A stretch of 54,577 nucleotides of DNA, from assembly GCA_018985235.1 (NCBI GenBank), contig JADGIG010000011.1, forward strand, positions 1 through 54,577. The letters run 5' to 3'. Under the pieces are notes generated by a model. It searched no databases and was not told the DNA's origin. It saw nothing but the letters and a program-made list of their open reading frames with translations. The stretch comes from Sanchytrium tribonematis (lineage: Eukaryota). Positions within the stretch are counted from its first letter, which is position 1. Each line of letters starts with the position of its first letter. A program made the position numbers and the translations under genes. This document shows, one piece after another, positions 3,977 through 46,880 of the stretch.

Positions 3977-4165
3977 TTACTTTAAGAAGTACTTTGCAAA
4001 TTTTATCAAGATAGAACAAAAATGATATTATATAATGAATATAACACCATAGAACGACTTGATAGTCACGTTTTTAATATCTCGTCATCCTTGCCAAGAA
4101 TCATCATCACATTTTGATTACGTATCTCAAATTTTTCTATAAAATGCAGCAAAAGATAATTCGTG

Positions 4166-5083
4166 ATGCTCCTCAGTAGATATTTATGGGTTTGGACCAC
4201 AGATGAGATTGTTGGGAATGTTGCCAAGACAAAGCAATTGGTCAATACATGTGCCCAAAATAATATCAAAGATGTGTTTTTGTATATCAATCCTAATAGT
4301 TATGGATACATGACAGATGGGCTAAAGTTATTAATTTCTAATTTAAATCGAGCCAATGTCAAAAGCTGGGGAATGGATGGCCGTCGAAGTTATTTTTCTG
4401 ATTCTGATGGACCCGGAAAGTTATTAAAAGGCGTTGACAATTTGATTTTGTATAATTCAAAAGTAGCAGCCAACGAGCGATTTGTAGGATTTCAAACTGA
4501 TATTGAATTACAAGATGAAAATGGGTTTAAACCTTCATTTCATAATGCTATCGGCGATTCTCATTTAAACAAAAAAAGCGGTGGAGTTTGGAAAAGCAGC
4601 CAGGCTGCTGATAGAGCGGCCCTTGTTCAGGATTACCTCAAGACGCATGATTTATTGAAAGCAAAATTGAAGCCAAAGGGACTGTTACTTGGTGCGGCTA
4701 TTCCTTCTTGGTGGGATGCGTATTATGGTGATCCTATAAGTGCAACTTATAAAGGGAAATATCAGGACATTTTTCGCCATTTAAGTGGAATTGTTAACGA
4801 AATTCATTTTATGGCTTATAATACCGACCCATTGAACGTAAAAAGCCGAGTTGACACAAAACTGCAATATTTGAGCAAATATACAAAAGTTAAGGCTTGT
4901 GTCGGTTTGGAGACTAATTCAGATGTAGGTGAAACTGTTAGTTATGGCGATACACCTGGCAAAAATTCCAAGAGAGCGTTAATGAGAGACATTTCCAAAT
5001 TAGAATCATTATTGAAAATCTTTACAGCTTTCAAAGGAATTTGTATACATGATTTTGATGGATTTTTAGCCTTACGCAAATAA
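4166..5083 (+). CDS. GH18-like TIM-barrel glycoside hydrolase, paralog 1
   Basis: FVGFQTDIE (DxE on a beta4-like strand), LGAAIPSWWD, HFMAY, GLET, C-terminal ICIHDF. First ATG at 4166, TATA-like tataaaa at about 4137. Confidence 0.55.
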   Translation: MLLSRYLWVWTTDEIVGNVAKTKQLVNTCAQNNIKDVFLYINPNSYGYMTDGLKLLISNLNRANVKSWGMDGRRSYFSDSDGPGKLLKGVDNLILYNSKVAANERFVGFQTDIELQDENGFKPSFHNAIGDSHLNKKSGGVWKSSQAADRAALVQDYLKTHDLLKAKLKPKGLLLGAAIPSWWDAYYGDPISATYKGKYQDIFRHLSGIVNEIHFMAYNTDPLNVKSRVDTKLQYLSKYTKVKACVGLETNSDVGETVSYGDTPGKNSKRALMRDISKLESLLKIFTAFKGICIHDFDGFLALRK

Positions 5084-5318
5084 TAAAACATTTTTGAGAT
5101 TTTGTTGAAAGCCCAAGGGAATAAGCAATCATTAACCTCATATTGACGTCGCCAATCGTGAGCCGTCGATATCGCAGTTTCGAATGATATCCATCATCAA
5201 GGACATCTGATTGGAAACGTCCTCCTTTTGCCAATTTGCAAGCCCGTTTTCATCACACTCTAGGTCACGGCCATTTCTGAATTCGGTATAAATACCAGAG
5301 ACTTCTTCTAGATTACTT

Positions 5319-6236
5319 ATGTTATTAAGCAGATACTTATGGCTATGGACCACTGAAGATATTGTTGGAAACGTGGCCAAAACACAAGAATTTGTCAAAA
5401 ATTGTAAAGACTACAATGTGAAGAATGTCTTTATGTTTATGGCACCCAGCAGATATGACGCGCTTGCAGATGGTCTCAAATTATTGATCTCAAATTTGAA
5501 TCGTGCGAATATTAAAAGCTGGAGCTTGGATGGAAGAAGAAGTTATCTCTCTGATTCTGATGGTCCTGAGGCATTACTGACGGGAGTGAAGAACATGTTA
5601 AAATATAACGAAAATGCTGCAGATGATGAAAAATTTGTTGGTTTCCAAACAGATTTGGAAATTGTGGATATTGATGGTTACAAACCAACATTTCACAATG
5701 CTCTAGGAGACTCTGAATTGGACAAGAACAGTGGTGGAGTCTGGAAAGATAGTCAAGCTGCAGATAGAGAAGCACTGGTCGAAGATTGGCTAAATACCCA
5801 CGATTTGATTAAAGCAGAGCTCAAATCTACTGGTGTATTATTGGGTGCCGCGATTCCTTCATGGTGGGATGCTTACTATGGGGATCCAATCAGTGCGACC
5901 TATAAAGGCGAATACCAGGATATTTTCAAGCATGTAAGCAATATTGCAGATGAAATACATTTTATGGCATACAATACTGATCCAGAAAATGTCAAAGGCC
6001 GAATTGACTCAAAACTACAATTTTTAAGTGAATCCACTAAAGTTAAAGCGTGCGCAGGTCTAGAAACCAATGAAGGAAATGGAGAAACAGTAAGTTACGG
6101 CGACAATCCCGAGAAAAACTCTAGAACAGCCATGATGAGGGACATCGCCAATTTGGAGAATCTATTAAAAGGATACTCAGCATTTTCTGGGGTTTGCATT
6201 CATGATTTTGATGGATTTATGTCATTAGGAAATTAA
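5319..6236 (+). CDS. GH18-like TIM-barrel glycoside hydrolase, paralog 2
   Basis: Colinear tandem paralog of 4166..5083 with long identical blocks (e.g. LLGAAIPSWWDAYYGDPISATYKG). TATA-like tataaata at about 5287. Confidence 0.55.
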   Translation: MLLSRYLWLWTTEDIVGNVAKTQEFVKNCKDYNVKNVFMFMAPSRYDALADGLKLLISNLNRANIKSWSLDGRRSYLSDSDGPEALLTGVKNMLKYNENAADDEKFVGFQTDLEIVDIDGYKPTFHNALGDSELDKNSGGVWKDSQAADREALVEDWLNTHDLIKAELKSTGVLLGAAIPSWWDAYYGDPISATYKGEYQDIFKHVSNIADEIHFMAYNTDPENVKGRIDSKLQFLSESTKVKACAGLETNEGNGETVSYGDNPEKNSRTAMMRDIANLENLLKGYSAFSGVCIHDFDGFMSLGN

Positions 6237-6953: not shown

Positions 6954-7232
6954 ACAAAAATTCCACTTCAATAAAATAAAGCTCGCTAACATATCTAGTC
7001 AGATAATTTTATGAGCATCGAGCTAGAATCGAATTATTAATACCTCATTTTATAAATTTTACGGGTAAAAAATCAAGAAACAATGGAGGTGTTGTATTAT
7101 TTGTTTAGGAATCAATACAACAAAATAAAAAATTTTGCCAACAGTTTACTTCTTTCCTTCCTAATGCCTGAGAAAATTCAAAAATGAACTGATTATAGAT
7201 TTTACGATTTCAGACACGTCAAACAATCGGAG

Positions 7233-13582: not shown

Positions 13583-14829
13583 ATGAGTACGAGTCCTTCT
13601 ACATCAGCTCCTGCAATTGGTCTTTCAAACCTACCAAATCAATTGCACAAAACATCAATGAAAAGAGGCTTTGATTTCACTTTAATGATCGTAGGTGAGA
13701 GTGGGCTTGGAAAATCCACTTTGACAAATACTCTGTTTAACAGCATTTTATATCCACTTAAGGAGCCACAACCACTTACTAAGCTAACTCCAAAAACAAT
13801 ACAGCCACAAGTATTAACGGGAGTACTTAGCGAGAAAAATGTCCAACTCAGACTTAACATTATAGATACTCCTGGCTTCGGAGACTATATTAATAATGAA
13901 GAATGTACCCGTCCGTTAATTGAAACAATTGATGGCAGATTTGACCACTATTTGGAACAAGAAATGAAGCCAACCAGGAACAAGGTTGCTGACACCAGAA
14001 TTCATGCGTGCATCTATTTTATTCCCCCAACTGGGCATTCTTTAAGACCCATTGACATAGATTGTATGAAGCAGCTTCACGAAAAAGTCAATTTAGTTCC
14101 TGTTGTTGCAAAGAGTGACATTTTGACAAAAGAAGAATTGCAAGGATTTAAAGCTAGAATTCTCGATGATATTACTAGTAATGGTATTAAGGTTTTTCAA
14201 CCTACAACCTATGATTTTGACGATGAGCAGACAAAAGGTGAAAATTTAAATATTTTGAAAGCTATTCCATTCGCAGTTATTGGAAGCAACCAAGTTATTA
14301 AAAAAGATGGAAAAGAAGTAAGAGGACGTCAATATCCTTGGGGATCAATTGAAGTTGAAAATCCAGAACATTCAGACTTTCATTTGCTTAGAAGTTTGCT
14401 TATAAAAACTCACTTGGAAGAACTTCGAAGTCACACAAATGATGTTTTATATGAAACTTACAGAACACAAAAATTGCTCGCCCTAGGAAAAGAGCAAGAG
14501 TATGTGCCTAAAGATATCAAGTAACTTTTTATTTATCTAGCCCTCTTGTCAGTTTAGAAGAGCAACGTCATCAGCATGAAGCACGACTTGCTAAAATGGA
14601 GAATGACATGAAGCTTGTATTTCAACAAAAAGTCCAAGAAAAAGAAAGTAAACTTAAACAATCAGAAGATGAATTATATGCACGTCACAAAGAAATGAGA
14701 GAAGCGTTGGAAAGACAAAGACAGCAATTGGAAGCCGACAAAAAGAAACTAGAGCAGCAACTAGTTAGCAGTGGTGGAGCCCCAAAAGATGACAAAAGCG
14801 GTAAGAAGAAGGGATTCAGAGGCTTGTAA
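13583..14829 (+). CDS. CDC3: Septin, Cdc3/SEPT7-like; exons 13583-14520 and 14541-14829
   Basis: GESGLGKST, DTPGFGD, HACIYFI, AKSD, GRQYPWG, EVEN. Splicing a 20-nt GT-AG intron joins the GTPase domain in frame to the coiled coil (KDINPLVSLEEQRHQHEARLAKMENDMKLVFQQKVQEKE). Confidence 0.9.
14521..14540 (+). other. Predicted 20-nt spliceosomal intron (gtaactttttatttatctag)
   Basis: GT..AG, contains the in-frame TAA, and removal restores the frame. An alternative donor at 14500 (41 nt) is also in frame. Confidence 0.7.
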
Positions 14830-14991: not shown

Positions 14992-16435
14992 ATGTCTCAG
15001 TCATTAGAATCCCTAGTCACACGCCTTGAAAAAGTAACAGAAAGATTAGAAAAGACAGCCAACAATTCCGGATCAAGTGCACCTCAAAATGCTCCTCAAA
15101 CATCCGTCGGGGGATCATCCCAAATGGTAGATCAATTTGAAAAGATCTCAAACCAAATGACAGGAGAATCCCTTAAATTTGCCAACGCATTAGCTGATGA
15201 GCATCTCACCCGCACAATTCAGATCTTTCAGAGTGCATCCCAGTATACCATCAACTTGTTGAATGCTACATTGAAGTTCTCTAAGCCTTCAGCACAAGCT
15301 TTTCCACAGTTATTAACCCCAATTACCCAATTTGCATCTGATTTACAATCTATCAAGTCTAACTACCCAAAGAAACAGCCTTTGTTTAATGTTGTTTGTG
15401 CATTTATTGAGGGATATAATGTTTTCGGATGGGTTTCAATTAGTCCAACACCAGTCCCATTCATCAATGAAATGAAAGATGCTATGTCATTTTATAGTAA
15501 CAGAGCATTTAAAGAATTTAAAGATAAGGATGAAACTGTAATTAATTTATTGCAAGGATTTAACACCTTTATTACCGAATTAGCCCAATTTGTAAAACAA
15601 TGGCACACCACTGGATTAGTTTGGAAAGGTTCCAAAGAAATGGGAGCTAAAGATATGGAAGAATTAAAATCCCATGCTCCATCTGCTAGCCAAAGTAGCA
15701 GTCAACCTAAATCTACAAATGTGCAACCAGCAGCTACTGCGCCAACACCAACTGTTGCACCATCTACCACCGGATTATTTAGTGAATTGAACAAAGGTGG
15801 TGCTATCACTAGTGGATTGAAGAAAGTTGAAAAATCACAAATGACACATAAAAATCCTGAACTCCGTGCTAGTGGAGTCGTAAAATCCAAGGAAGAGACT
15901 GGTCAGCCAACAAGTGCACCCCAAGTTTCTGCTAAGGCTGCAGTGAAACCACCAGTTTTTGAATTGCAAGGGTCAAAATGGGTTGTTGAACATCAAATGA
16001 ACAACAAAAACATTATTATTGAGAATAGCAATTTAAAACAAGTCGTTTACATCTTCAATTGCCACAATAGTATTATTCAAGTTAAAAACAAAGTCAATTC
16101 AGTCACTTTGGACAACTGCAACAAAACTTCTGTTGTTGTTGATTCTGTGGTCAGTACATTGGATACTGTCAATTGCAAATCAATTCAGCTTCAAGTAATG
16201 AAGAGTGCACCAACTGTATTCAATATTTATTTAGATTGCCATTAACAAGACCGATGGATGCTTGTTGTATTTGGGTGAAGACATGGATAGTGAAATATTC
16301 AGCAGTAAACATTCTGAAGTGAATATATGTTATACACACAAGGGTGAAGTTGTCGAAAAGGCTATGGTTGAAATGTTTAAAACTGTCGTAAAAGATGGTG
16401 GATTAGTAACTGTCCCAGTTGAGCATTCTGCTTAG
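14992..16435 (+). CDS. SRV2: Adenylyl cyclase-associated protein CAP/Srv2; exons 14992-16215 and 16235-16435
   Basis: N-terminal RLE repeats, HTTGLVW, ITSGLKKVEKSQMTHKNPELR, CARP domain. After splicing the C-terminus reads SAPTIAINKTDGCLLYL...EIFSSKHSEVNI...EMFKTVVKDGGLVTVPVEHSA*. Confidence 0.93.
16216..16234 (+). other. Predicted 19-nt spliceosomal intron (gtattcaatatttatttag)
   Basis: GT..AG. Removal restores the conserved CAP PTIxIxKTDGC motif with no extra or missing residues. Confidence 0.85.
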
Positions 16436-21501: not shown

Positions 21502-22785
21502 TTAAAAATATACGCGACTATCTTTTTTCGCTACTTGCGGCTCAAAGTTGATTTCAAAGGAGACACTTCCTTTCGTGGATGTTTTACAACAATCATCTAT
21601 TGTCATCTTGGGTAGGCTTGGCGGTACAGAATCTTTGGTCCTGAATGAATGGTTATTGTGTTGATTCATTTCAGTGTAGTTTTCCATAGGCAATTTGGGT
21701 AAACTCGATGGTCCGAAACCAGCATTTCGCTTATATGAAGGTTTTGAGAAGCGGCGATAAATGATATTATCTTCAGATGTTTTCAAGGCTTCCAAGTTTT
21801 CCAATTTTGGATAGACCTTTTTGTTATAAATTTTTTCTGGCTCGACTTTGCGTCTCTCTAATGGTGCAGCCAATGTTGATAATCTTTTATCATTCACTAT
21901 AGTTTTCCTGTGCTCTAATTGCACTTGAAATGGGGACTCTTCAAGCACCCTGACATGTACTTCTTGCTTTTGAAGTCCTTTGGCTAGTCTGGCCATTTCT
22001 AATTTGCGCAAATAAGATTTTTCTACTTCATCTTTGTCTTTGTTGCGTACTTGAGAGGGCTCAATTAGTCGACGCTCTAATGGCACTGACATCAAGTCGA
22101 ATTTTTCAATACACTTAGTCGTCTTCTTCACAAGCTTAGGTACGAATGGCATTTCTTCTAATACTTTAACTCGTGGTAATTTAGCTGATGCTTTCACTTG
22201 CTTGCATCTGGCAATCTTTTCCAAATAGGCTTTCTCCACAACCTCTTTGCTCTTGTTAAGTACCAATGCAGGGTCTACAAGTCGTCTTTCTAGTGGCACA
22301 GACATGTCATCAAACTTCGAAAGACATTTAGTTGTCTTTTTAACTAAAATAGGCTTGAATGGCTCCTTTTCCAATGCCTTTACTCGAATCTTGCGTTTCT
22401 TTGTCACAGTTTTGGGCTCTAATGGTTCCAGGATTATTTTGCTAGAGTCACGCTTTACAGGTAAGTCAAGCACACTTTTGCTGGAACATTTTTGTGAGGC
22501 TGAATCTATTTTTGCTTTCAATTTAGGAATCTTGCTCTCAGAATGTGTCTTACACAAGCTCTCACCTTCCTTCTTTATTTGAACTACATTTGGTAAATAA
22601 TGATGGCTCTTCGTCCATTTCAGTTCTGGATTTCGCCCCAATTCTAATTTTGATTCACTTTTTAATGTTTCCAAATCCATTTTAAGCTCCTTCATCAAGG
22701 ATTTGTAACTCTTTTGTTTGCTTTCATTTGCCTTTTCTAAAAAATATAATTGTTTTTCAATTTCTGCTATTTTATCTGCTATCAT
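21502..22785 (-). CDS. Basic orphan protein with about three ~70-aa internal repeats
   Basis: Repeat core (R/V)(V/R)xLExxPF...KKTT...(S/A)(V/A)PLERRxxxPxxxxNK occurs three times; N-terminal coiled coil. Confidence 0.7.
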   Translation of the reverse strand: MIADKIAEIEKQLYFLEKANESKQKSYKSLMKELKMDLETLKSESKLELGRNPELKWTKSHHYLPNVVQIKKEGESLCKTHSESKIPKLKAKIDSASQKCSSKSVLDLPVKRDSSKIILEPLEPKTVTKKRKIRVKALEKEPFKPILVKKTTKCLSKFDDMSVPLERRLVDPALVLNKSKEVVEKAYLEKIARCKQVKASAKLPRVKVLEEMPFVPKLVKKTTKCIEKFDLMSVPLERRLIEPSQVRNKDKDEVEKSYLRKLEMARLAKGLQKQEVHVRVLEESPFQVQLEHRKTIVNDKRLSTLAAPLERRKVEPEKIYNKKVYPKLENLEALKTSEDNIIYRRFSKPSYKRNAGFGPSSLPKLPMENYTEMNQHNNHSFRTKDSVPPSLPKMTIDDCCKTSTKGSVSFEINFEPQVAKKDSRVYF

Positions 22786-23573
22786 AGGGATTGACCTAAA
22801 TTTTTTAAGGCAATTTCGGATAAATACTTGGCAGCAATTAATTCAACACCCATAGGATAAATGTCACAGTATTTCGGCGCATTTTCAGACCATTATAAAT
22901 GTTGGGCTTTTTAAAGAAACCACATTAAGCTATCTCAAAACTCCTGCGCTTTGAAACTTTTCATTTTTGTCTGCTCAATGTTGCAGATAATAAAACACCG
23001 GATTGATCTAAAGTGAACTCCATCTCTTTGACAGCAGTGGTAGAACAGAGAATAATTCAGATTCCTCAAAATAAAGTGGACTTTTTTAGAACAAATTTCT
23101 TTCAATTACGTTTGATTTATTTGTCAGCGAATATTTCTGTCAAAAGTAATCAGAAAAATCACGTTTATAGCTATTTACACCCGAGAAACAATTTTGATAA
23201 GTCGTTGGTCTAACGCCAGTTGTTCCAATATGTACGATTGTAAATAATTGGGATTTGCATACGGAAACCGAATTTGTTTATCTGGATCATGGAACCAAAA
23301 AATCACCCGGAAGGACTTTTGCTCTGCATCATTCATGACAATTCCAAATTCAACCGCATTTTATTACTTGAACTTCTGCAAAGTAAATTTGTTGTTCTAT
23401 CGATTGAATACTAACTTCCTCTATAACTACAAATTTTTGCAAAGATGATCTGATAAGGATAACATAAATAATGCTTTCGGAGTGAAGAGGGCTCATAAAA
23501 TGCATTTATTCCCAAAATATAATTGACAATATGTCCAAATAAGGTTGTCTTGGTAGCTGTGGCCCGCTATAGG

Positions 23574-23679
23574 CAATGTATATGGTAATGCGATCTTGCT
23601 GCCAAAACTTGTCATTCCCAAGTCCCAATGTATATGGTAATGCGATCTTGCTGCCAAAACTTGTCATTCCCAAGTCCCA
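23574..23679. repeat. Perfect 52-bp tandem duplication
   Basis: caatgtatatggtaatgcgatcttgctgccaaaacttgtcattcccaagtcc at 23574-23625 and again at 23626-23677. Confidence 0.95.
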
Positions 23680-23869
23680 TTCCTTCTTCATCTGAACTAC
23701 ATTTGATATGTTTTGGACTATTGGTGGCTTGTTGCCTCTTTTGAGATCTGCTTATAACTCCATTTTTTGTTTTTAATCGCTTTTTGATGTTTCTTATTCC
23801 TGGAAGATGAAATGCTGTATGCTCTCATGAACTTCTCCCAAAAAAGGATCATTTTCTTCAACTTCGGCT

Positions 23870-24380
23870 GTTTTATGTCCTATAATAGATTGAACTAAAT
23901 TTTTAAGGCAATTTCAATAAATTCTTGATGAAAAGGAAAGACCCATCCTCCTTGGTTTGCATTGGTGGCTTTGGGTCCTTTTAAGCTCTGATTTTGGTCC
24001 TAGATCAACATTTGAATCGCTTTTCAATGTTTCCAAATCCATACTAAGCTAGGATTTGTAGCTTTTTTGTTTGCTTTCATATGCCTCTTCTAAAAAGAAT
24101 AGTTTTTTTTCAATTTCTACTATTTTTTTTCTGGTCTCATAGGGATTGACCTAAATTTCTTGAGGGTAAATTGTGATAATTCTTGGCAGCAATAAAATTA
24201 CAACTGGATGTTAAATACGACCATCATGTGGTGTAGACTCAAAAGATTATAGTCCCTAGCTTTATTAGCAAACTCGTAAGAATCTAGCTCGAAACTTTCT
24301 CACTGAAACAAATCAAATATGTCTGCTCATATTTACAGATGAAGGCAGTACACGATTATGTTGGAGTAAACACGATCTAT
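23870..24380 (-). pseudogene. Degenerate duplicates of the 5' end and promoter of the 21502..22785 gene
   Basis: 24010-24205 aligns to about 22650-22850 (aatgtttccaaatccat...aggatttgta...tttgtttgctttcat...catagggattgacctaaattt...cttggcagcaat) with frameshifts. A third promoter-like copy lies at about 23880-23930. Confidence 0.75.
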
Positions 24381-24665
24381 TTGTTGTGAGACAAAAGAGG
24401 CTTGCACCATTCCTCGAGATATTGTCACTGATATAGTTCCCCAGAAATAGCAATAGAAATTTGGCATTTTTTGGTGTTTTAGTTGCACTCTTCCTCGCAT
24501 CAAATTTTTTGTTAAATTATTGGAAATCGGTGACTAAACCACGGCTTTATACATGCCATACATTATCTCATTATCTAATATGATCATTTGTTTAATGATT
24601 ACACCATTTCCGCCCAAAAATGTCGCCATTAATTGAAATATAAGTTCGTGACAACTCGCCCTGGC

Positions 24666-27600
24666 ATGTTATTGGCAACTTTATTACTAGCTACTATCAA
24701 AGTATTCCAGTCACATTTTGAAATAAATGGAAAAGCGACACTATTAAGAGGAGGATCGTTGCAATGGTATCGACTGCCCAAATCCGAATGGGAAGACAGA
24801 TTATTAAAATTTAAGGCAGTAGGCTATAACATGGTGGAAATTTATGTCAGTTGGCAATACATAGAGCCTATACAAAATCAATTCCATTTAGATGATCTAC
24901 AGGACTTTTTAGAAATGTGTAAGAGATACAATTTGTATGTTTATATTCGGCCAGGCCCATTTATTTGCAATGAAGAAAATGCGGGTGGTTATCCCAATTG
25001 GGTGATTGCTCAATCAGACAAAATTATTAATCCAGATAGTTTGGATGGCAAGTATTCTCTCAGAAGTGATGATTTGGATTTTTTGGTGATTGTCAAATCT
25101 TATTTTAAAGCAATTAATCGTATCATTAAGCCATTTCAGATTTCTCACAATGGCACTATCATCCTTTATCAAGTAGAAAATGAATTTGATTATTACATGC
25201 AATCACTGGATGTAGATAGATATGCGTGGATTAAAGATCACCCAGAGAGACCTTATAATCAAACGATCAATATCAATAATTATTTCAATCACTTAAATGA
25301 GTTTATTCGGGAAGATGGTATTGATGTGCCTTCAACGACTTGTCCTGGAACCTTGGAAATGCTTTCAATGCCTACTGACACCACCATTATCCCACTTCCA
25401 AACTATTATTCCAGCACAACTCAAATTGAAACTAATTTTTTAAACTATAAACTCGTTCAAAATCAGAATAAAAATTTGGTGCCTGCTGGGACTTCAGAGA
25501 CATTCCGGGCCTCACATGCACTATCAAGAATGATACTGTCTGGAATGGATCTTGTTTCCCAATTCAACACTTTTGGGCATTTTGCGCATGGACATCACCA
25601 CTCTACAATTTTACAATTATTAGGAATTATGACTGCAGCTGATTTGCCTAAGATGTTCCATCAGTTATTTCATCCACCATCTACTGGTAAAATCGTTGCG
25701 GTCCCAATTGCTTTATTTCCCTCCCAAATGGATTTAAATGGAATTGTATCACCAAGTGGTCAAATTAGGAATCAATTTTTTCATATTCATCTTTTAAATA
25801 TATTTTACAACACTTTTGAGTACCTTATTGCACCTGTTAATATGCCTTATATCTCATATACCAACAAACGACTAAACAAAGCAAAACGATCCAACAAATT
25901 TCCAGTGAATGATGAGATATTTGTCAAAAGTTCAAAAGTCGGAGCATTGGATACCAATCGACATAGATTTATTAGCTGGATGCCATTGAATGCAAGCAGG
26001 ATCAATCAAACCATCTTAATTGGAATTTTAAATCCTTCTTCTGAAGATATTGAATTACCACCCCATTCCATCCAAACACCAGATTTTGACTTTCCTCTAA
26101 TTTCGAAAGTAACCATACCTTCTCAATACATCAATACACTCCAAATTCAATCCGATACAAAATATGATTCCACAGACACGATGTATGTCAGTCATTTAAT
26201 TATAAACCTGATATTTATTTATCATTTTTATTTCAGTACAATCCCATTTACATATAAAAGATTACTGGAAAGCAATGAAAAGAAAAGCGGATTGATTGCG
26301 TTGCACAACAAACCAGACACGGAATATGAGATTTTAATGAATTTATTTGATATTCCTAAACCTAAAAATATTCCACTATATAAATTTAAAAAATCAGACT
26401 CATTCAAGGCAAAAGGAAACTATATTCTTTTGTATGGGTCTGTTAAAAATACTCCTGTTATTCATCATTTGCCAAATTTGACAATTTTAATTTTAAATAC
26501 ATTTTTAGCAAGTCGGTTGTACAATCACAAAGTTGAAAATAAGTCAATTGATTTTATTGGTGTAGATTTGTTACTTGGTGGTAAAATTGTGATGCTTGAT
26601 ATCATCAGGTCATTTTACACATTTCAGTTATTTGAAAAAGAGACAGATCTCATTAAGCTTAAATATCCTATATTATCCAGTGAAACGACATTGAATGGGA
26701 TGCTGATTCAGTATGATTTACCTCGGTATTTTAGAAAAAGTGAATTTGAGATAAATGGACCTTTTCTAAGCGAGTTTTCTGGATTTACTGATTTCAGGTC
26801 ATACAACTCACCGCTTCCTTACATTGAACAATTACAGCTAAATGTTACCAACGAAAGAACTGAATTAGATAGTCTGAATGGCCCGCTAAATGACTACACT
26901 GAATATTCTACTGACATCTCTGAAAATATTCAGAAATTATTTGCCGACTCCAAAAAACCTAAGAAAGTGGTGCTTGTTTTTGAAAGGCTGGGTGATTTCG
27001 CTTGTTTTTACTTAAATGATAAGCCTCTGGAGTGTCGCACACCTTTGATGATGATGCACAAATTTGAAATTGATTCAAATCATTTTAATCTTAAGGATAC
27101 TTCCAAGTATATTTTGAAGATAGTTGTATCTATTTGGGGTAGAGGCAATTTTATGTTTCCCAGTGGCGATTTGGGTCATATTCCTTACAAAAATAAGAAA
27201 ATCAATACAGGAATACATTTTAATATGGTCATTCTAGCCTGTGACGGATTGAAAGGTGTATTTGGAAATACCACTTTAAATGGTTCACCTCTTAGGAAAT
27301 TTAACGTGAGCTCAAAATTTGCCAGAGATAGCAGCAAATTGACAAGGCTTAACCAATACAGTAAATCTGATGCTCCGAGGAGCGTACAAGTAAAAAAGGG
27401 AGAATTAAAGTGGGTTTCGTACTTTATAAAATCGAAGCATCTGATGACTACATCAAAAATCGCAAACTCCATTAAATTAAAGGGTCAAAGTTTGAAAGCA
27501 AATCTGTATATTAACAATATTGTCATTGGTAAATTTATCAGCGATGAAGGCTTTATCCAAGACGGAAATGGGTATGACGTGGACTCTCATGGTCGATCTT

Positions 27601-27782
27601 TAGCGGACACGCATTCATTTCCAGTCGTCAACTTTGAAGAAGGGTTTCAGCTAGATATGTTACTGGACGGAAGAAGAGATGGTGCTGTTTTAGAAGAAAT
27701 TAAAGTGGAAATGAGCAGAGAAATTTACTTAAAAGATGGCAGTAAAATTGGACAAATTGAATACAAATTTGATATTGAGTGA
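24666..27782 (+). CDS. Glycoside hydrolase family 35 (beta-galactosidase-like), secreted
   Basis: GGSLQWYRLP, GYNMVEIYVSW, IRPGPFICNE, GGYPNW, ILYQVENEF. First ATG at 24666, about 22 nt after a tataag box. Confidence 0.85.
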   Translation: MLLATLLLATIKVFQSHFEINGKATLLRGGSLQWYRLPKSEWEDRLLKFKAVGYNMVEIYVSWQYIEPIQNQFHLDDLQDFLEMCKRYNLYVYIRPGPFICNEENAGGYPNWVIAQSDKIINPDSLDGKYSLRSDDLDFLVIVKSYFKAINRIIKPFQISHNGTIILYQVENEFDYYMQSLDVDRYAWIKDHPERPYNQTININNYFNHLNEFIREDGIDVPSTTCPGTLEMLSMPTDTTIIPLPNYYSSTTQIETNFLNYKLVQNQNKNLVPAGTSETFRASHALSRMILSGMDLVSQFNTFGHFAHGHHHSTILQLLGIMTAADLPKMFHQLFHPPSTGKIVAVPIALFPSQMDLNGIVSPSGQIRNQFFHIHLLNIFYNTFEYLIAPVNMPYISYTNKRLNKAKRSNKFPVNDEIFVKSSKVGALDTNRHRFISWMPLNASRINQTILIGILNPSSEDIELPPHSIQTPDFDFPLISKVTIPSQYINTLQIQSDTKYDSTDTMYVSHLIINLIFIYHFYFSTIPFTYKRLLESNEKKSGLIALHNKPDTEYEILMNLFDIPKPKNIPLYKFKKSDSFKAKGNYILLYGSVKNTPVIHHLPNLTILILNTFLASRLYNHKVENKSIDFIGVDLLLGGKIVMLDIIRSFYTFQLFEKETDLIKLKYPILSSETTLNGMLIQYDLPRYFRKSEFEINGPFLSEFSGFTDFRSYNSPLPYIEQLQLNVTNERTELDSLNGPLNDYTEYSTDISENIQKLFADSKKPKKVVLVFERLGDFACFYLNDKPLECRTPLMMMHKFEIDSNHFNLKDTSKYILKIVVSIWGRGNFMFPSGDLGHIPYKNKKINTGIHFNMVILACDGLKGVFGNTTLNGSPLRKFNVSSKFARDSSKLTRLNQYSKSDAPRSVQVKKGELKWVSYFIKSKHLMTTSKIANSIKLKGQSLKANLYINNIVIGKFISDEGFIQDGNGYDVDSHGRSLADTHSFPVVNFEEGFQLDMLLDGRRDGAVLEEIKVEMSREIYLKDGSKIGQIEYKFDIE

Positions 27783-30060: not shown

Positions 30061-30510
30061 TTAATTCCGTTGTGCAATTTTTTTCACCTTGTTTTTGTTT
30101 TTCTTGCGATTTTTTCTCTTCCGGTTCGTAGATGCTTCCAATTTCACCGACTCAAGCTTTTCTAAAATCTGGGCAATATCTGAAGAAGGAACTTTGGATT
30201 CTTTCTCTATTAGCAATTCCTTTTTCTCAACGCATTTCTTATAAAACTCGTCCGAATCAATTGTATTTTGAAACTCATTAAATTGAGGTTTCCGGGTAAT
30301 TTCACCCTGATATAAATTGCAATCCAATTTTCCAAACCCAATTGTAGATAATTTATCCACTAACAACTTCAGATCGGAAGGACTTGGTGTAATAAAATAC
30401 AAGTTATTATCCAGTGTATATTTCAGATGTAAGTTGGAGTATGCATCCTTTTTTTCATTGGGAATTCCATACAGAGTACATCTCTTTCGAACTTGAAATT
30501 GAAAATTCAT
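30061..30510 (-). CDS. Hypothetical protein with a basic C-terminal tail (NLS-like)
   Basis: 149-aa ATG ORF ending NRKRKNRKKNKNKVKK. Confidence 0.55.
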   Translation of the reverse strand: MNFQFQVRKRCTLYGIPNEKKDAYSNLHLKYTLDNNLYFITPSPSDLKLLVDKLSTIGFGKLDCNLYQGEITRKPQFNEFQNTIDSDEFYKKCVEKKELLIEKESKVPSSDIAQILEKLESVKLEASTNRKRKNRKKNKNKVKKIAQRN

Positions 30511-30995
30511 CCTTGTTTTGGGTTGTAATTTTCTTTCACATTTTATCTATTTTTCACAAATCTATTTCATATAACCTATCATAAATACGATCATTGTTTG
30601 TGTATACTTCTGCGTTATTGTGAGAGAATTTATAATCATATAAATGTAATGCATCTATTGTTGCATTTTCCGCAGCAACGAAATCGAAACAAATTTTTAT
30701 TTTTACACTATCTACTGATTAAACAGAGTCACTTCCCACTTTACCAAACAATCAATTGTGACTGGAATTTTGTTTATAAAAAAACCAGATATGGGAATTT
30801 TGTAAAGTGCACTTTTATTTACTGTAAATATTTTGATACTAAAGTAGGCCAAACATCAGCGTGATTGTAATCATAGAACAAAGCCCGTCAAAATGTAATA
30901 ATCGACCAGAAGTTATCGATGGCCATTCCCCTTTCTGCAATGGGATTGTCTTAAGTTAGACGACTGGGTGCTTATGATATTTGTCCTTTCAATAT

Positions 30996-36287: not shown

Positions 36288-38516
36288 TTATTGAGTTTTG
36301 CTTTGTAATTGCCCTAATTCGACTGCTTCAAATTCGCTCTCAAGGGTAAATCTTATGGAAGGGTCACAAATTATAACCAAACCAAAACCACAGTTAAATG
36401 TTCTCAACATTTCGTCTCTAGTAACATTGCCCAAATGCTGAACCCATTTGAATATAGGAGAAAATTCAAACTGTTTATATTCTGGTTCCAAATGGCTCGG
36501 AAGCACTCGAGGCACATTTTCTGGAAAGCCGCCACCAGTAATATGTGCAAATCCTCTTATTTGATGTTTGTACTTCTTAATGAGATTTAATACAACATCA
36601 ACGTAGATCTCTGTAGGCGTTAGTAATATTTCAGCAACAGATTTATCAAATGGGGATTTATCAGAAAGCTTAATGTTGTTCAATTTCAATATCTTTCTTA
36701 TCAAAGAATAGCCATTTGAGTGGATCCCGCTTGATCTTATTCCCATTAGTAAATCACCTTGCTTCATTTCTTGTAATTTTGGATAAGTTTCGCCTTTTCT
36801 AACAGCTCCCACTGCAAACCCAGCAAGGTCAAAATCTTTGGAATGATACATACCTGGCATTTCTGCAGTTTCTCCGCCAACCAAAGCACATTTAGAAATT
36901 TCACAACCCTTTGCTATTCCCTTGACAACAGTTGCTGCAGATTTTACGTCTAATTTACCACACGCATAATAATCTAAAAACAAAAGAGGTTCAGCACCTT
37001 GAACGACCAAATCATTGACACTCATTGCAACTAAATCTATTCCAACTGTATCGAGAATATTAGATTCGATTGCTAGTTTTAATTTCGTGCCAACTCCATC
37101 TGTACAGCATACCAAATAAGCGTCCGATGGATATCCTGCTTGGGTTAGGTCAAAAACAGCACCAAATCCACCAAGATCACAATTGGAGCCTGATCGACTG
37201 GTTTTTTTAACGTATTGCTTAATCTCATTAACAAACGAGTTCCCAGCATCTATATCAACACCAGCTGAAGCATAAGTGAGTGATTTTTCGCCAAAATTCT
37301 TGTTCATTACCTGATGGCCAATATCTGTTCTAAAAAACATGTCTTGAAAGTGAATACTCTTCACTACCGAATATGCAAGATCTTTACAAGTTTCGAAAGA
37401 ATCTCCAAGTGCGGTAACACATAACACTCTTCCACCACTAGTGACCAACTCACTAGTTTGCTTCGTACCAGCGTGAAATATTTTTACATTGGAATTTTCG
37501 ATTACTGGTAAAGAGATGGGATATCCTTTTTGGTAAGATTCTGGGTAGCCACCACTAGCTAGAACAACTCCGAGAGATTTTTGAGATTTAAATTTTAATT
37601 CAACAGAGTCCAAATAACCTTTACAGCAAGCCATCATCACCTCTCCGAGATCCGTATCGAGAAGTGGCAGCACAACTTGTGTTTCCGGATCACCTAATCT
37701 GCAATTGAATTCCAGATTCATCGGACCATTTTTGGTAAGCATTACACCAGCATATAGTACGCCCACAAAAGGATGTTTTTCCTTTCTCATTCCATCAACG
37801 GCTTTTTGTATTATATTCTGGTGGATCCAATCTAATTCATCGGTAGACACGACTGGAGTTGGTGCATACGCACCCATTCCACCAGTATTTGGCCCCTTAT
37901 CTCCATCTAATAACCGCTTATGATCTTGAGCAGGAGGAAGTATTTTGGTAGTAAATCCATCACTAAAAGCCAAAACCGATACCTCAGGACCGTTTAATAG
38001 CTCTTCAATCACAACTTCTTGTCCCGCACTACCAAATTTTGATTCCAGCATCATATCTTTTAAGAAAAACTGAGCCTCTTCTTTGTTTTTTGGCAATAAT
38101 ACACCCTTACCAGCAGCTAAACCACTTGTTTTTAAAACTATGTTATAGTCAACTTCCTCAATAAAATCTTTCGCAAGATTGTAATCTGTAAATGATTGAT
38201 ACCTTGCAGTTGGAATTCCATATTTGACCATAAATTCCTTAGAATATGCTTTTGAACCTTCAATTTTAGCTGCCTCTTTTGACGGACCAAAACAATGTAG
38301 ACCCGCGGTTCGACATTTTTCCTGAATACCGTCAACAAGAGGCTGCTCAGGCCCAACTACAATCAAATCGGCTTTGTTTTGCAAAGCAAATTCAATTGGA
38401 TCGCCATCGAAATTTCTGGTATTACCATTCCCGGGAGAGCAATAGACATCATGATTGCTTAATGATTGACATATTGCATCTTCTCTACCGCCACTTCCTA
38501 CGACAACAACCTTCAT
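36288..38516 (-). CDS. ADE5,7: Bifunctional GAR synthetase-AIR synthetase (PurD-PurM fusion)
   Basis: GSGGRE, GLAAGKGV, QDHKR, GPNTGGMGAY, EFNCRLGDPE; then YASAGVDIDAG, TDGVGTKL, GGETAEMPG, HSNGYSL, HITGGG. No GART domain. Confidence 0.96.
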   Translation of the reverse strand: MKVVVVGSGGREDAICQSLSNHDVYCSPGNGNTRNFDGDPIEFALQNKADLIVVGPEQPLVDGIQEKCRTAGLHCFGPSKEAAKIEGSKAYSKEFMVKYGIPTARYQSFTDYNLAKDFIEEVDYNIVLKTSGLAAGKGVLLPKNKEEAQFFLKDMMLESKFGSAGQEVVIEELLNGPEVSVLAFSDGFTTKILPPAQDHKRLLDGDKGPNTGGMGAYAPTPVVSTDELDWIHQNIIQKAVDGMRKEKHPFVGVLYAGVMLTKNGPMNLEFNCRLGDPETQVVLPLLDTDLGEVMMACCKGYLDSVELKFKSQKSLGVVLASGGYPESYQKGYPISLPVIENSNVKIFHAGTKQTSELVTSGGRVLCVTALGDSFETCKDLAYSVVKSIHFQDMFFRTDIGHQVMNKNFGEKSLTYASAGVDIDAGNSFVNEIKQYVKKTSRSGSNCDLGGFGAVFDLTQAGYPSDAYLVCCTDGVGTKLKLAIESNILDTVGIDLVAMSVNDLVVQGAEPLLFLDYYACGKLDVKSAATVVKGIAKGCEISKCALVGGETAEMPGMYHSKDFDLAGFAVGAVRKGETYPKLQEMKQGDLLMGIRSSGIHSNGYSLIRKILKLNNIKLSDKSPFDKSVAEILLTPTEIYVDVVLNLIKKYKHQIRGFAHITGGGFPENVPRVLPSHLEPEYKQFEFSPIFKWVQHLGNVTRDEMLRTFNCGFGLVIICDPSIRFTLESEFEAVELGQLQSKTQ

Positions 38517-38660
38517 CTAAAACGAGGAGTAATGAATCCTATTATACGATTATGGAACGGATTTGAATGTGAGTGAACAAATTTCCATAATTTCAAGAAG
38601 GAATACAGTTTCTTACTAAATTTGTTAAATGTTGAGAACTTGCTAACTCCTTCAAACAAA

Positions 38661-39830
38661 ATGGTAGATCCATTTTCATTTTATTTTAAGTCGTCCATAG
38701 ATTTACGCGAGGTCACTCATTACACAACTAACAAGTCCTTTTTCGATTCATACCAAAAATTCTATGTTCCAGCTGTGTCGCTTGCATTACCAAATTTGCA
38801 AAAAGTAGAGATATACCAATTGGATGAATACGCTGTCGACGAAATTATCGACACTATTCGCTTAATACTCAAACATTGTGTCTGTATGACTGAGGATATG
38901 AAATTAAAAGCATTTATTGACGACTTTCCTATTGTCCAACAATTGGAAGTTGCAAAGTCAGATAAAAATCTAGATCTATTCAACGCAGCCATCGATACTT
39001 TCAATATCAAAATAATTCAAGCTGCAGAGGTAAATTACGTCGTTGGATATTTAGAAGATAAGGCACCTAATATGTTTATAAAATTAAGCAAGTTGAGCAT
39101 GTATGCTAAATTAAAATCGGAAATCGAACAACCACACCCAGAGTTAATTGAACACATATACTATCAATGCTACAGTAGAATTATAGAACCAAAACTCAAT
39201 GAGTTGAGTAAATACCAAGCTTTTTCTGACAGTGTTTATGGTGAAATCATGTTTAGTCTGACAAGTCAAATCATCGAGCTAACTAAAATCAATAGCACAT
39301 CAATTTTTCTCGATCTTGGTAGTGGAATTGGAAATGTCGTTTGTCAAACAGCAGGAATTACGCAGTGTGAAGCTTACGGAATTGAAATTATGGCAAACTC
39401 TGTGGAATTATCTTTTGACATGGCCAACGAATTTCAAACAAGATGCCATCATTTTAATCAACCATGTGGCAAAATTCATTTATTTAAAGGTGATATTTTT
39501 AATCATCCAAATATTGATTCCTTGCTGAAACGAGCTACTGTAATTTTTGTCAACAATCATGTATTTACCTCCCAAACTAACAGCCAATTGATGCAGAGAT
39601 TCTTGGATTTACAAGATGGGTGTTTGGTCGTAAGTATAATCAATTTTGCACCCACAACCCCACTTAGTAGTAGAATTACGCACAGAAATGTCAATCACAT
39701 TGAAAGCATACTACACGTGACTGAGCATGATTATCTCGCAGAAGATGTGAGCTGGTCAGATGAACCGGGTCATTTTTACATTCACAGGGTTGACAGAGAG
39801 CCATTAAAAAAGTTTTTAAGCAGAAGATAA
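38661..39830 (+). CDS. DOT1: Histone H3K79 methyltransferase DOT1
   Basis: YQAFSDSVYGE, FLDLGSGIGNVVCQ, GIEI, VIFVNN, VSWS. First ATG at 38661. Confidence 0.92.
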   Translation: MVDPFSFYFKSSIDLREVTHYTTNKSFFDSYQKFYVPAVSLALPNLQKVEIYQLDEYAVDEIIDTIRLILKHCVCMTEDMKLKAFIDDFPIVQQLEVAKSDKNLDLFNAAIDTFNIKIIQAAEVNYVVGYLEDKAPNMFIKLSKLSMYAKLKSEIEQPHPELIEHIYYQCYSRIIEPKLNELSKYQAFSDSVYGEIMFSLTSQIIELTKINSTSIFLDLGSGIGNVVCQTAGITQCEAYGIEIMANSVELSFDMANEFQTRCHHFNQPCGKIHLFKGDIFNHPNIDSLLKRATVIFVNNHVFTSQTNSQLMQRFLDLQDGCLVVSIINFAPTTPLSSRITHRNVNHIESILHVTEHDYLAEDVSWSDEPGHFYIHRVDREPLKKFLSRR

Positions 39831-41169: not shown

Positions 41170-42100
41170 TTGTTGTGCGACGCACAAGAGAATGAGCAGC
41201 CAGCCATGGAGCAAGCCAATTGCAGGCGCATGTATAGTTCTCCCCAATAGTGCCAGAGCAAAGGGTGAAATGGAGCGAATTTCGAGTGGATGAAGACGGA
41301 CTAAGTAGTACATCTGCGGAACCATATCAATCGGAATCGGTGCCTGGCATATTAAGAGATTGGGAGAAAGAGTATAGAGATTACCGCATTAAAAAATATG
41401 AGGAATATTGGATGAATGCGTATGGGAGCACCAAGGGATTAAATGCCGCGCTTAAAAGGATGGAGGCAAACGAGGTAAAGCAGGTTGTGAATCCAGCTCA
41501 AGGCAATAGAAATGATTGGCCAAAACACGTGGACATGAACAAAGAGCAACAAGTCACCGCATCAACTGAGGCTGATTGGCCAGAGCACGTGGAAATAGTA
41601 GATGATAGCAAAAGAAATGAAAAATAGAGACTACAACAAACTCAATAAACAATGACTATTAAAACTACAATAGGCAATGCAAACATGCAAGAACAAACGC
41701 CTGAACAGTATCAGAATGGACAAGAGAGTCTACCCACACGGACCGCTCGCAGAGCAAAACCACAGAGAATCAAATACAGGTCGATGACCAATCCTCTTTC
41801 AAGCAGTCATTGAGTGAGAAAAGCTACTCCGAGAAGCTCAGTAAGTTAAGTAGCATGAAGAAAAAGAAAGAAAAAGAAGAAAAAGAAAGAAGCATCAGAG
41901 ATTTGAATCGTAGTAGATTCACACCAGAGAAAGCACTAAGCAAGTTGAGGGAGTTTAACTCTAAAAACAGCATTCCAAGGAATAGAATGAAAGATGTAGA
42001 TCAATCACAAGCCAGCTTTAATGCTAGCGAGTTAATTGGGCAACATCTGTTGAACACGCATGAGTTTCCAGGGCGAAACGAGTCGTGTGCTACGACTAAA
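41170..42100 (+). repeat. Unclassified dispersed repeat, copy A
   Basis: Aligns to 46385-46880 (caagagaat.agcagc, caagccaattgcagg, tatcagaatggacaag, cgatgaccaatcctcttt, gagaagctcag, caacatctgttga). Carries extra sequence at about 41330-41690. Confidence 0.8.
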
Positions 42101-42356: not shown

Positions 42357-44021
42357 ACGTATTTACTTGAATAGAAGGACTAGTCCTGGGTTCGCTTGGA
42401 TGGTCCGTTGCTTATTGTAAAAGATACGATATTTCATTAAGAACTAGTTTCCAATCTTTGTAATTACAGTGATGAGACTGCAGTAGAGCCCGGTTTTAAA
42501 TTTTTAAAATACTTGAATGAAAAGACCAAAGATCTATCAAGAAACAAGATGAAACTGCTTGCTATATGGAGGACCCCAAACAAACCACGTTGGAACCACG
42601 TGGCAGAAGACATGTGGCAATGAAATCAACTGGGTTTGCATCTCTAAGAGTCACAGCTTTGATTGGTAGTAAACCCAATGGTAATAAAGTTAGGCCATTG
42701 GTTATATTCAAAAATGTTTCCCATAAAAAAGGTACTGAGACTATAGGAACAATCAATGACTGCTGGCATACGGAAAATCAAAAAGCATACATTAATGAGA
42801 AGCTATTCATTTAATGGATTGATAAAGTACACCCTAAATCACCATTTGTCAGAGATGAAGATGACCCCAAGGCGCTAGTGGTAGATTCAGCTCCATCTAA
42901 TCGATCTAAATTGGTGAAAATACATTGTCTAAAGCGCAATATTCGTTTAATTATCATCCCAGGAGGTTTAACTAGTTACTGTCAAGCAGCTGATGTGTGT
43001 TTGTTTCGTTCATTTAAATCTCATTTGTCTGCGTATATCCAGGAATGGAAGAATAGTGATCGTGTTTTATACACTAAATATGGTACTCCAAAAGCACCAT
43101 GTAAATATGAAGTCACACAATGGATTGACAGTGCTCAAAGTAAGATTACAACCAATTTTTTAAAAAAAGCAGCGGATATGCGGTTTTGGATCAGATGCTG
43201 AAGACTGGTTCATTTCAAAGCATGATAGAATTTGGATTGTTTTTAGTTACATGGGCAGTAGACGAGTCTAATATTGTACCACCAAGACACTTTGATATTC
43301 AGTATGATATTCATGACAATGAAGAAGAGGGCTATGAAACTTGTGTAGTTGATGTTGTAGAATCAGTGGTAGTGGAAATGGGTAGTATAGAAATTTATGA
43401 ACATTTTGAAATGTTTAAAAGCATGTATGACCATGCTACAGTTGATGTAAAGGAGGTTGATGTATTTTGCATTGAATGTAACGCGCCAATGTTAACAACA
43501 CAATGGCACAAGTGTGGTAGATGTGGTGTCAGAGGTCATGGATTGTGTTTGGATTATTGTGAAGATCATGATAAGTACTGCCAAAAGTGTAGACAATGAG
43601 TGACAAAAGAAATAAATAAATTAATTTAAAAGGAACACTAAATTGAGTATCTACATACGTAGAGGATCTGCATGACATGCGACTATTACGGTCTATAATT
43701 TTTACTTGAGATTTGAGATATCTAACACAAACCTAATTTGATGCGACGATTGTCATTATCTTGAAATCTTTGCTATTTGTTGTCTTAGTCTTGCACAGTA
43801 TTTAGTTTTATTACAAAGTCTTGCAGTACCAATCAAAGTATTTTAATAAATAATATTGACTTTGTATTTATTTACAAAGTCTTGCCTTTTTATTACCAAG
43901 TTTTAAAAAGTTTATCAATGTATTTGAATAGAAGGACTACCTATTCTATTGTTTCGATATTTGGACCTATTTTTGTTCTATTGTAAGCTATAGTGTAGTC
44001 CTTCTACTCAAGTAAATACGT
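42357..44021 (+). mobile_element. pogo/Fot1-like DNA transposon (DD35D), internally deleted and disrupted, with TIRs and TA target duplication
   Basis: TA|acgtatttacttgaatagaaggacta ... tagtccttctactcaagtaaatacgt|TA (26-bp TIR, one mismatch). DETACYM, VDSAPSN and CQAADV catalytic motifs; HTH remnant KRYDISLR; PHD-like finger at about 43470-43599. Confidence 0.9.
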
Positions 44022-44289
44022 TAGATTACTATATGTCGTAATGAGGAAGATGATAACATAAATTGTTTAGAGTTTTGGAGTTGTCAATCACCAGAATGAT
44101 CTGGTGGTGTTTTGAGTGGGATTTTGTAAGGAATTTTGGTGCAACCCTGGTGCGGAACCAAAAATCTGCTCATGTGTTGCTTTTAATTGGCTAAATGGAT
44201 CCACGTATTAGCAGTTTGTAGCATTGGAAACATTTGAACCAAAATGTCGTAATCAAAAAGAAGATAATTTTTTGAGATGCGCGCCCCTT

Positions 44290-45850
44290 TATAGTGTCTC
44301 TCAGACTTGTTAATAAAGTGTTTACCCATCCAATTCCCCCGGGGGAACTGGATGGAATTTTGACTATGAAAATACAATTTCCCCCATATTAATAAATGTT
44401 CTATCAAATCAATATATTTATTCTTCTTCACTTAACAATGAATAAATCATCACTTCTGGCTCTCCAGTTTGATTTTCAAAGTCAAAACTGGAATTCCTTC
44501 ATCAGTAATCTCAATAACATCGCAAAAATCAAATGAGCCAGAATATGCTGGACCTCCAGCTAAAGAAGCCATGACTTAGTCAAACAAAAAATCTCTTTCT
44601 AAATTAATATTAAATATTCAGGTCATTCACTTTTGCCATGTGCAAATCTTCAATATTTTCACTGTAGTAGCATGTTTGCAAATCATTTTCAATAATGGAA
44701 AGCGGAACTTGATTTCAATGTCCTACAATTTATTTTCTCAAATTACCAATAGGTGGTTTTATTAGTACTTTTGAAAATTCAGAATTTTCCCATAAATTGT
44801 TAACTTGTTCAGTATAAAAGTTTTTAATAGACTTTCTGATATTACACTTTAAAGATCTAATAATAGCCACATCTGCTACTTGGAAATATCCAGTTGCACC
44901 TTTTGGAATATATAAGCATTTGATTTTCTTATTTGCTAAATATTCACTCATAATATTTTCTGTTCTAGAAGCTTCATGTGCTGAACAATGATCCCAAATA
45001 AGCAATGCATTTCCAAATGGTAAAATGTAATTCAGATATTTGATTAATAATGATTGAGTAACCCATCCTTTTTTAGTATATCCCATAATACAATCTTCTT
45101 TGATCTTAATAGTGTCTAATGTAACTGCACTTGTTGTTGCATCTACAATAAAAGGTTTAGTTTTTGATCCAGTTTTCCTATTTGCAATCATAAATGTAAT
45201 ATTTGTTTTTTCATGAAAACCACTAAAAATAGGGACTACATTTGCACCTTTTTACGGCAACAGTTTTGGTTTCCCAACATCCATACAAATAGCAATTTCA
45301 TCCATAAATAAAATATTATCTTCCGTATAATTTGCAGATTCTTTTCTAAGATCATAAATATGTTATGCAGCTGAATTTGCTAATTCCATATTTTCTTTTT
45401 TGTGTAGTTGATCTGTTAACTAATCCATTTCTTTTTAACATTGCTTTGTACCAATTTAATGATATTTTGAAAGATCCATCTAATACACATTCTAATTCTT
45501 GGTTTCAATCCATTTTTTAATCAATTCATAATTAATAATCATTTTGCATTCCATCATAAACTTAATTCTTTCAATAGTAATTTTTTCGATACTTGCAAAT
45601 TTCATATTATGTCCAAGTGGTACCATTTTACGCAATTCTCTCCCTTTAAAATTTAAAATCATTTTTCTCCAATCGCGAATCGTCTTTGGAGTTGTGTTAT
45701 ATTTTCTTGAAATTTCTTTTAAAAGATAGACTTTGAATTGCTAGATCACGTAAAGCTTTTCTTTTAGTCTTTACCGGTGATTGCTTTTAGTTTGCCATTT
45801 GTTTGTTACAAAAAATATTTACTAAAATTTATTCAAATCCCCCGGGGGTA
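44290..45850 (-). mobile_element. Second pogo-like transposon remnant, bracketed by CCCCCGGGGG palindromes
   Basis: Frameshifted transposase from ATG 45798: DNILFMDE, KGWVT, LLIWDHCSAH, IPKGATGYFQVADVAI (39 aa between D2 and D3). Element ends are approximate. Confidence 0.8.
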
Positions 45851-46384
45851 GAATTAGAAGAAGAACTTCCGTTGTGTAATATTACTGACTTCACATATAT
45901 GAAGATTGATACAGGTGATGATTGAAGTCATAATCCAGTGTTCAAAGTCTATTTAGTTGGAGAAGATAGTGTTCCGTATGGGAAACCAATCACAAAAATG
46001 TGGAAAACACTTTTGCATTTCACGAATTTGTAATGAAAGCTAAAGATGATTCCAATTATGTTTACATAGACACATTTTTAATTCATAAATTATTGGATAA
46101 AAGCTTATTTTTAAGCTTTTATTGTTTCAAATAATGGAAATAAAGGAAAAAATGGACATTGCAACACGAATGTAGTATCTAAAGTAAAAAAGGCAGCAAT
46201 TAAAATGTTTTATGACATATAAATATCTCTTGCCCAATAAATACTTATTTATATTTACATTTCTGGGGAATTTCTTCTTGTTCTGTTATTTGTGATATTG
46301 TGTAAATTACAATAATTAAAATTTTAAAAGGGATAATATTCCCTTTGATATTGGTTTACAAAATTATTACAAGGCTACATCAAA

Positions 46385-46880
46385 GCTATTGTGCCTCGTG
46401 CAAGAGAATAAGCAGCTATGAAACAAGCCAATTGCAGGAGAATTGTCAGCTCAAGGAAAAAAGTCAAATGCAGTGACTATCAAGTAACCTTAGATGGGTT
46501 AAGCAGGCAAGGCAAATATACAACAAACGCTTGACCAATATCAGAATGGACAAGGGAGTCTTCCCATACAGGACTGCTTGCAGAGCAACATTACAGGGAA
46601 TCAAATGCAGGACGATGACCAATCCTCTTTTAAACAGTCATCAAGTGAGAAGTGCTACTTTGAGAAGCTCAGCAAGTTGAGTAGTAAGACGAGAAAGAGA
46701 AAAGCGCAGCAAATTCAACCAAGAGAAGGCAATTAGTAGGCTGAGAGAGTTTAACTCGAGATGCAGCACTCCGAAACAAAATGAAAGGCGCAGACCAGCT
46801 TAAATGCTAGTGAGCTAATTGGTCAACATCTGTTGATCACGGACGAGTTCCTAGAGCGAGATGAGTCGCGTGTTAAAAGC
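46385..46880 (+). repeat. Unclassified dispersed repeat, copy B
   Basis: Direct, diverged copy of 41170-42100. Confidence 0.8.

Follow-up and report, generated by a model that had tools for sequence, protein, structure and literature searches.

Likely miniature spliceosomal introns of 19 and 20 nt in two neighbouring genes of a sanchytrid-clade fungus

Two adjacent genes in the stretch of DNA analysed here (54,577 nt, referred to as the window), encoding CAP/Srv2 and a Cdc3-type septin, are each broken by a short GT-AG insert, of 19 and 20 nt respectively, whose removal restores the protein. We regard it as highly probable that both inserts are spliceosomal introns, and as very likely that they are miniature introns of the U2 type in a fungus of the sanchytrid clade. 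They are likely representative of the small number of introns it has kept, and in the scheme proposed here each would be recognised as a compact unit with the branch adenosine at position -6 from the 3' end.

The first exon of CAP/Srv2 (14992..16215, forward strand) encodes CAP_N-CM, CAP_N, a WH2-like region and the first part of CARP/CAP_C, and ends in ...SAPT. Without splicing, the open reading frame runs from the ATG at 14992 to a stop at 16245, within the CARP domain. Removal of the 19 nt at 16216..16234 (GTATTCAATATTTATTTAG; phase 0, 3n+1) joins exon 1 to exon 2 (16235..16435, forward strand; IAINK...EHSA-stop) to read ...SAPT/IAINKTDGC...EHSA-stop, restoring the CAP C-terminus. The Pfam CAP_C match is broken exactly at the insert, with profile positions 1-91 in exon 1 and positions 91-157, in another frame, in exon 2. 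An HMM built on the C-terminal 175 residues of 105 full-length homologues was used to score 46 frame-restoring models (33 GT/GC-AG pairs and 13 single-base deletions); the 19-nt cut came top (215.9 bits), followed by the best single-base deletion (204.9 bits, n=13) and the best other GT/GC-AG pair (200.8 bits, n=32). The four-residue spacer that this cut restores is present in 71 of the 72 homologues matched by the pattern used (33 of the 105 were unmatched), and the intron boundaries cannot slide to either side. The original prediction had proposed a 19-nt GT-AG insert at 16216-16234 whose removal restores CAP, and both the model ranking and the splitting of CAP_C at this point bear it out; its expectation that standard gene prediction would miss the intron is matched by the public ORF for this gene (P0001), which is the truncated 417-aa form.

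The immediate upstream neighbour of CAP/Srv2, the septin gene, carries a second insert, which the original prediction did not include. Exon 1 (13583..14520, forward strand) encodes the GTPase domain and ends in ...PKDI plus two bases, the intron (14521..14540, forward strand; 20 nt, GTAACTTTTTATTTATCTAG; phase 2, 3n+2) contains an in-frame stop as its very first codon, and exon 2 (14541..14829, forward strand) encodes the C-terminal coiled coil and is gapless at the junction against the full-length relative P0244. With an HMM of 117 homologues, the 20-nt cut ranked top of 57 models (188.5 vs 181.9 bits). As neither intron is a multiple of three nucleotides in length, retention of either truncates the protein.

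Both strands of the window were scanned for frame-restoring GT-AG segments and 29 ORFs were checked gene by gene, a screen which may miss stop-free 3n introns in non-conserved genes and introns in UTRs. Two frame-breaking introns were accepted in the 29 ORFs, those of 19 and 20 nt, and on this count the genome looks intron-poor. Other candidates were rejected: the segment at 41232-41250 has C at -6 and no conserved protein, that at 7089-7108 has G at -6 and does not restore an ORF, and in-frame candidates within the septin align as coding sequence. The window is gene-dense over its first 41 kb, has about 35% GC and uses the standard code. ORFs for a fused Ade5,7 (36288-38516, reverse strand), Dot1 (38577-39830, forward), a GH35 beta-galactosidase (24633-27782, forward) and an organellar-type ribosomal L2 (29039-30034, forward) are continuous, which is consistent with an intron-poor genome. 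Elsewhere, a broken paralog of the ORF at 21502-22842 (reverse) lies at 23500-24200 (reverse), matched by tblastn piecewise in two frames at 64-67% identity and carrying an internal duplication (about 55 nt) around 23570-23680; tandem paralogous ORFs at 4160-5083 and 5292-6236 (forward; about 305 aa, Pfam-negative) resemble, by eye, a glycoside hydrolase or a laterally acquired enzyme. The short basic protein at 30061-30546 (reverse) contains a stretch that we take, by eye, to recall UPF3, a likeness without Pfam support. The gene-poor end of the window (42400-54577) holds DDE_1 transposase remnants (42815-43201 and 44730-45251) and an SSB-family fragment (50099-50482).

Both introns begin with GTA and lack G at +5 (GTATTC in CAP and GTAACT in the septin), have a GC content of 16-20% vs 37-38% in the exons, and have ten of their last eleven bases in common, each ending in TATTTAT-N-TAG. 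The window has 2923 GT-AG segments with a length of 15-25 nt, of which six match the end of the CAP intron at ten or more of these eleven bases; these six comprise four distinct 3' ends, two of which are the introns themselves. TATTTAT-N-TAG, a motif defined post hoc, has two exact occurrences in the window (the two introns) vs 0.23 expected, and two occurrences were reached in 4 of 100 shuffles. From its sequence, TATTTAT is likely a branch motif of the wobble type in both introns (16224-16230 in CAP and 14530-14536 in the septin), with the putative branch A at -6 (16229 and 14535). Set against the conserved U2 branch-recognition sequence, which may differ from that of this organism, it can pair at five of six positions, two of these pairs being G-U, and would leave the A at -6 as a bulge; no Rfam family, U2 snRNA included, was found in the window. 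The original prediction was therefore right that the fungal CTRAC motif is absent but not that there is no branch point, since a likely degenerate one is present. Minor (U12-type) introns are characterised by an RTATCCTT 5' end and a CCTTAAC branch motif, and assignment to this class was rejected as the 5' ends found here are unlike RTATCCTT.

In the recognition scheme that we propose, the intron would be read as one compact unit, with the 5' site at positions 1-6 and a branch helix at about positions 9-16. The 3' end would act as a fixed module in which TATTTAT-N-TAG pairs with U2 as described and bulges the A at -6, the AG would be picked because it lies at a set spacing from the branch A, no pyrimidine tract being present, and the lariat would have a loop of 14-15 nt. 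The machinery acting on it would probably be a fairly complete major spliceosome.

For both genes the closest named relative is the sanchytrid Amoeboradix gromovi (53% identity for CAP and 89% for the septin). Trees of 34 septins (support 100/100) and 27 CAPs (SH-aLRT 100) unite the window with A. gromovi and several metagenomic proteins in one clade, in agreement with the earlier description of the genome as fungus-like; these are midpoint-rooted single-gene trees with a long branch, the CAP tree being a quick version, and the clade is unplaced within the fungi by them. Sanchytrids, which parasitise algae, have been placed beside Blastocladiomycota (PMC8371127).

The position of both breaks is conserved within this clade. 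The CAP ORFs of three of the four other clade clusters (P0002; P0003, from A. gromovi; and P0004/P0121) end just past APT with Val (GTN) and a short tail, and the septin ORFs P0124, P0125 (A. gromovi), P0246 and P0247 stop after PKDIK. The fourth CAP cluster (P0005) is full length, and its junction, SAPT/IAINKTDGC, is exactly the spliced form. Similarly, the septin P0244 is full length (407 aa, from a 1234-nt contig; junction PKDIN/PLVSLEEQR), is identical to the spliced window septin in 374 of 409 columns, and pairs with the truncated P0246 as its sister (branches of 0.015), the full-length relatives being nested in the clade. The simplest reading is that full-length and truncated relatives represent mRNA and genomic copies, neither record being labelled as RNA; alternatively, P0244 and P0005 could be genomic copies that followed precise intron loss, which would confirm the boundaries equally.

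The read-through tails of the truncated relatives were back-translated, with the window as a control from which the same script recovered the 19 nt. For P0004/P0121 this yields a GT-AG intron of 19 nt, which has A at -6 and precedes V-A-I-N; the only alternative solution, obtained without the exon-2 test, is 33 nt. From the tails of the septin relatives, the introns are at least 22, 19 and 16 nt long, values that are the true lengths only where the terminal TAG is the stop. The CAP tails of P0002 and P0003 (at least 15 and at least 9 nt) and the septin tail of P0125 are uninformative. The decoded P0004 intron must have A at -6, and so must all three septin tails on the terminal-TAG reading (background 32.5% each); in each of these three, a codon starting with A stands just before the stop, as predicted by a terminal TAG with A at -6. 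The septin tail of one relative misfits the A at -10 of the motif. A CAP profile scan of metagenomes returned at least 44 loci, with none from the clade among the matches listed; the PT/I junction is crossed gapless in 37 of the 44 listed loci outside the clade, the other seven having no alignment there. The intron position was thus not seen outside the clade in this set of at least 44 metagenome loci, which holds few early-diverging fungi and maybe some transcripts. An alignment-based protein search at E 1e-100 found no further clade members, and a degenerate septin pattern had 0 matches in prokaryote genomes.

The major spliceosome is present in the lineage, as judged from the annotation of the relative A. 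gromovi. The eggNOG rows for A. gromovi (PMC8371127 data) include Prp8, SF3B1, U2AF35, U2AF65, SF1/BBP, U1-70K, U1A/U2B'', Prp40, Brr2 and Prp22/Prp16; U1C, Prp28, Slu7 and Prp18 have no row among the A. gromovi matches listed, in an annotation that covers 3757 of 7220 ORFs and in which split genes may go unrecognised. SF1/BBP itself appears in the table as a pair of neighbouring ORFs on a single contig (KH domain and branchpoint-bridging protein; PMC8371127 Supplementary Data 1, rows 1135-1136), an arrangement which would fit an unrecognised tiny intron inside the branch-point factor. As far as these rows go, the spliceosome looks closer to the fairly complete one of Stentor than to those of microsporidia or Mikrocytos (PMC10245619, PMC3629993, PMC10158995), and membership of the class of reduced spliceosomes, which also includes Cyanidioschyzon and is marked by loss of the U1 snRNP and many factors, was rejected given the A. 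gromovi rows for U1-70K, U1A/U2B'' and Prp40. The original prediction had envisaged a lineage that may have independently evolved a spliceosome able to handle introns of about 20 nt. The second, 20-nt intron and the conserved breaks do point to a lineage-wide feature, but a specially rebuilt spliceosome finds no such support, as A. gromovi keeps core U1, U2, U5 and branch-point factors, with U1-70K, U2AF, SF1, SF3B1 and Prp8 among them.

Tiny spliceosomal introns are a known kind, of which the sanchytrid case is likely a record for fungi. In the heterotrich ciliate Stentor coeruleus, introns number in the thousands and measure 15-16 nt, with the branch A at position 10 of 15 or 11 of 16 (that is, at -6), a 10-nt lariat and a largely complete spliceosome (PMC9505925). 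The introns described here resemble those of Stentor in the GTA start without G at +5, the U-rich, degenerate putative branch region, the proposed branch A at -6, the absent pyrimidine tract and a probably largely complete spliceosome, but differ in being few, in their length of 19-20 nt (at least 22 nt in one relative), in a predicted loop of 14-15 nt and in belonging to an unrelated fungal lineage. Chlorarachniophyte nucleomorphs (18-21 nt) and Mikrocytos (16-17 nt) share the size class, the GT-AG ends, a conserved intron sequence and a compact or parasitic genome (PMC10245619); nucleomorphs, however, are intron-dense and are not a cell's main nucleus, and the Mikrocytos spliceosome has 17-19 proteins with only U2, U4 and U6 found (PMC10245619), whereas A. 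gromovi keeps annotated U1 proteins, U2AF and SF1.

Among holomycotan parasites, microsporidia and Rozella likewise have few, very short GT-AG introns (22-76 nt in Encephalitozoon cuniculi, PMC3629993; about 30 nt in Rozella, PMC6349667). The sanchytrid introns are 2-3 nt below the E. cuniculi minimum and their motif is degenerate rather than strict; A. gromovi, as a relative, retains U1 proteins, and the sanchytrid lineage is a separate one (PMC8371127). A fixed distance from branch point to AG is known in Yarrowia, Trichomonas and Giardia (PMC2483917), which share with the proposed scheme a fused 3' module without a pyrimidine tract, the TACTAAC-NN-AG of Yarrowia also placing the A at -6; their motif is, however, of a strict ACTAAC type and Yarrowia introns are long, in contrast to the wobble motif and introns of about 20 nt here. 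Median intron lengths in myxozoans are 22-27 nt (PMC13644364), and the 'ultra-short' introns of Cryptococcus are those below 60 nt (PMC11913375).

Explanations other than splicing account poorly for these observations. An assembly or sequencing indel, or a pseudogene, is very improbable: a search of sequencing runs listed no RNA run with the region and a single DNA run (X1), which spans the CAP site in one contig without an indel, and although this run may be the source of the assembly itself rather than an independent one, both exons are conserved, six surplus residues remain after single-base repairs, which also cost 11 bits of score, and A. gromovi shares the codon of the CAP break, as do several separately listed metagenomic proteins that are only 52-58% identical to the window in CAP. 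Splicing by Ire1 requires CTGCAG-type borders in stem-loops, and its HAC1 and XBP1 targets are bZIP genes. Removal of the inserts by Ire1 and RNA ligase would have a precedent for size in the HAC1/hacA introns of fungi (19 nt in C. albicans and 20 nt in Aspergillus; PMC2606855), but a CTGCAG-type border occurs at none of the four junctions, stable structure is absent (z -0.15 and +0.63 vs shuffles), the inserts have GT-AG termini and a branch-like 3' module in common, and the two genes do not encode bZIP factors, so that we regard this route as similarly improbable. Slightly less credible still is programmed ribosomal frameshifting over the inserts without splicing; the CAP insert would allow it, having no in-frame stop until 11 nt beyond its end, yet the septin insert starts with a stop, the two inserts would need different shifts, and the extra residues are missing from the full-length relatives.

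The live rival accepts that the introns are spliceosomal but places them at the short extreme of a wider spread of lengths (25-40 nt, say, as in Rozella) instead of making them the norm. We consider this unlikely, if far less so than the explanations above. The window provides two introns only, the septin tails of relatives are lower bounds and lengths vary (19, 20 and at least 22 nt), all of which would suit it; on the other hand, both introns among the 29 ORFs are of 20 nt or less, the decoded tail of a relative adds a third of 19 nt, and the three septin tails fit a terminal TAG with A at -6, against the background given above. We infer a genome-wide regime of tiny introns, rather than report one, because the two introns seen directly are too few for a length distribution. 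With these points weighed, miniature introns of about 16-22 nt are probably both the norm of the lineage and unreported.

In the literature searched, which lies largely outside subscription journals, we found no fungal spliceosomal intron shorter than 22 nt and no description of introns in the sanchytrids Amoeboradix or Sanchytrium. The accessible text of PMC8371127 and PMC10459994 does not contain 'splic' and has 'intron' only in a reference, and no figure for the shortest intron was found in the accessible part of a survey of 644 fungal genomes (PMC8476143). The sanchytrid proteomes were predicted with TransDecoder on genomic contigs (PMC8371127), which explains the truncated proteins in the databases.

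The wider reading, which we hold as probable though with a little more reserve than the size range itself, is that the small set of introns in sanchytrids was reduced independently to about 16-22 nt, shorter than any others in fungi, with a near-complete major spliceosome acting through a fused branch point of the wobble type whose A lies at -6, in convergence with Stentor, and that ORF-called proteomes hid these introns, leaving an unknown share of the proteins used to infer gene loss truncated or split. If this is true, near-minimal spliceosomal introns would have had an independent origin in fungi beyond microsporidia, and the recurrence of the -6 geometry of Stentor in an unrelated lineage would suggest a physical lower limit imposed by the spliceosomal active site. 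A fungal case would also allow direct comparison with the splicing genetics of yeast, both on whether about 20 nt gives room for U1 and U2 at the same time and on changes in the branching factors Cwc25, Yju2 and Isy1. For comparative work, intron-containing genes are truncated in the proteomes used for fungal phylogenomics, as seen here for CAP and Cdc3, and re-annotation of these proteomes may be needed.
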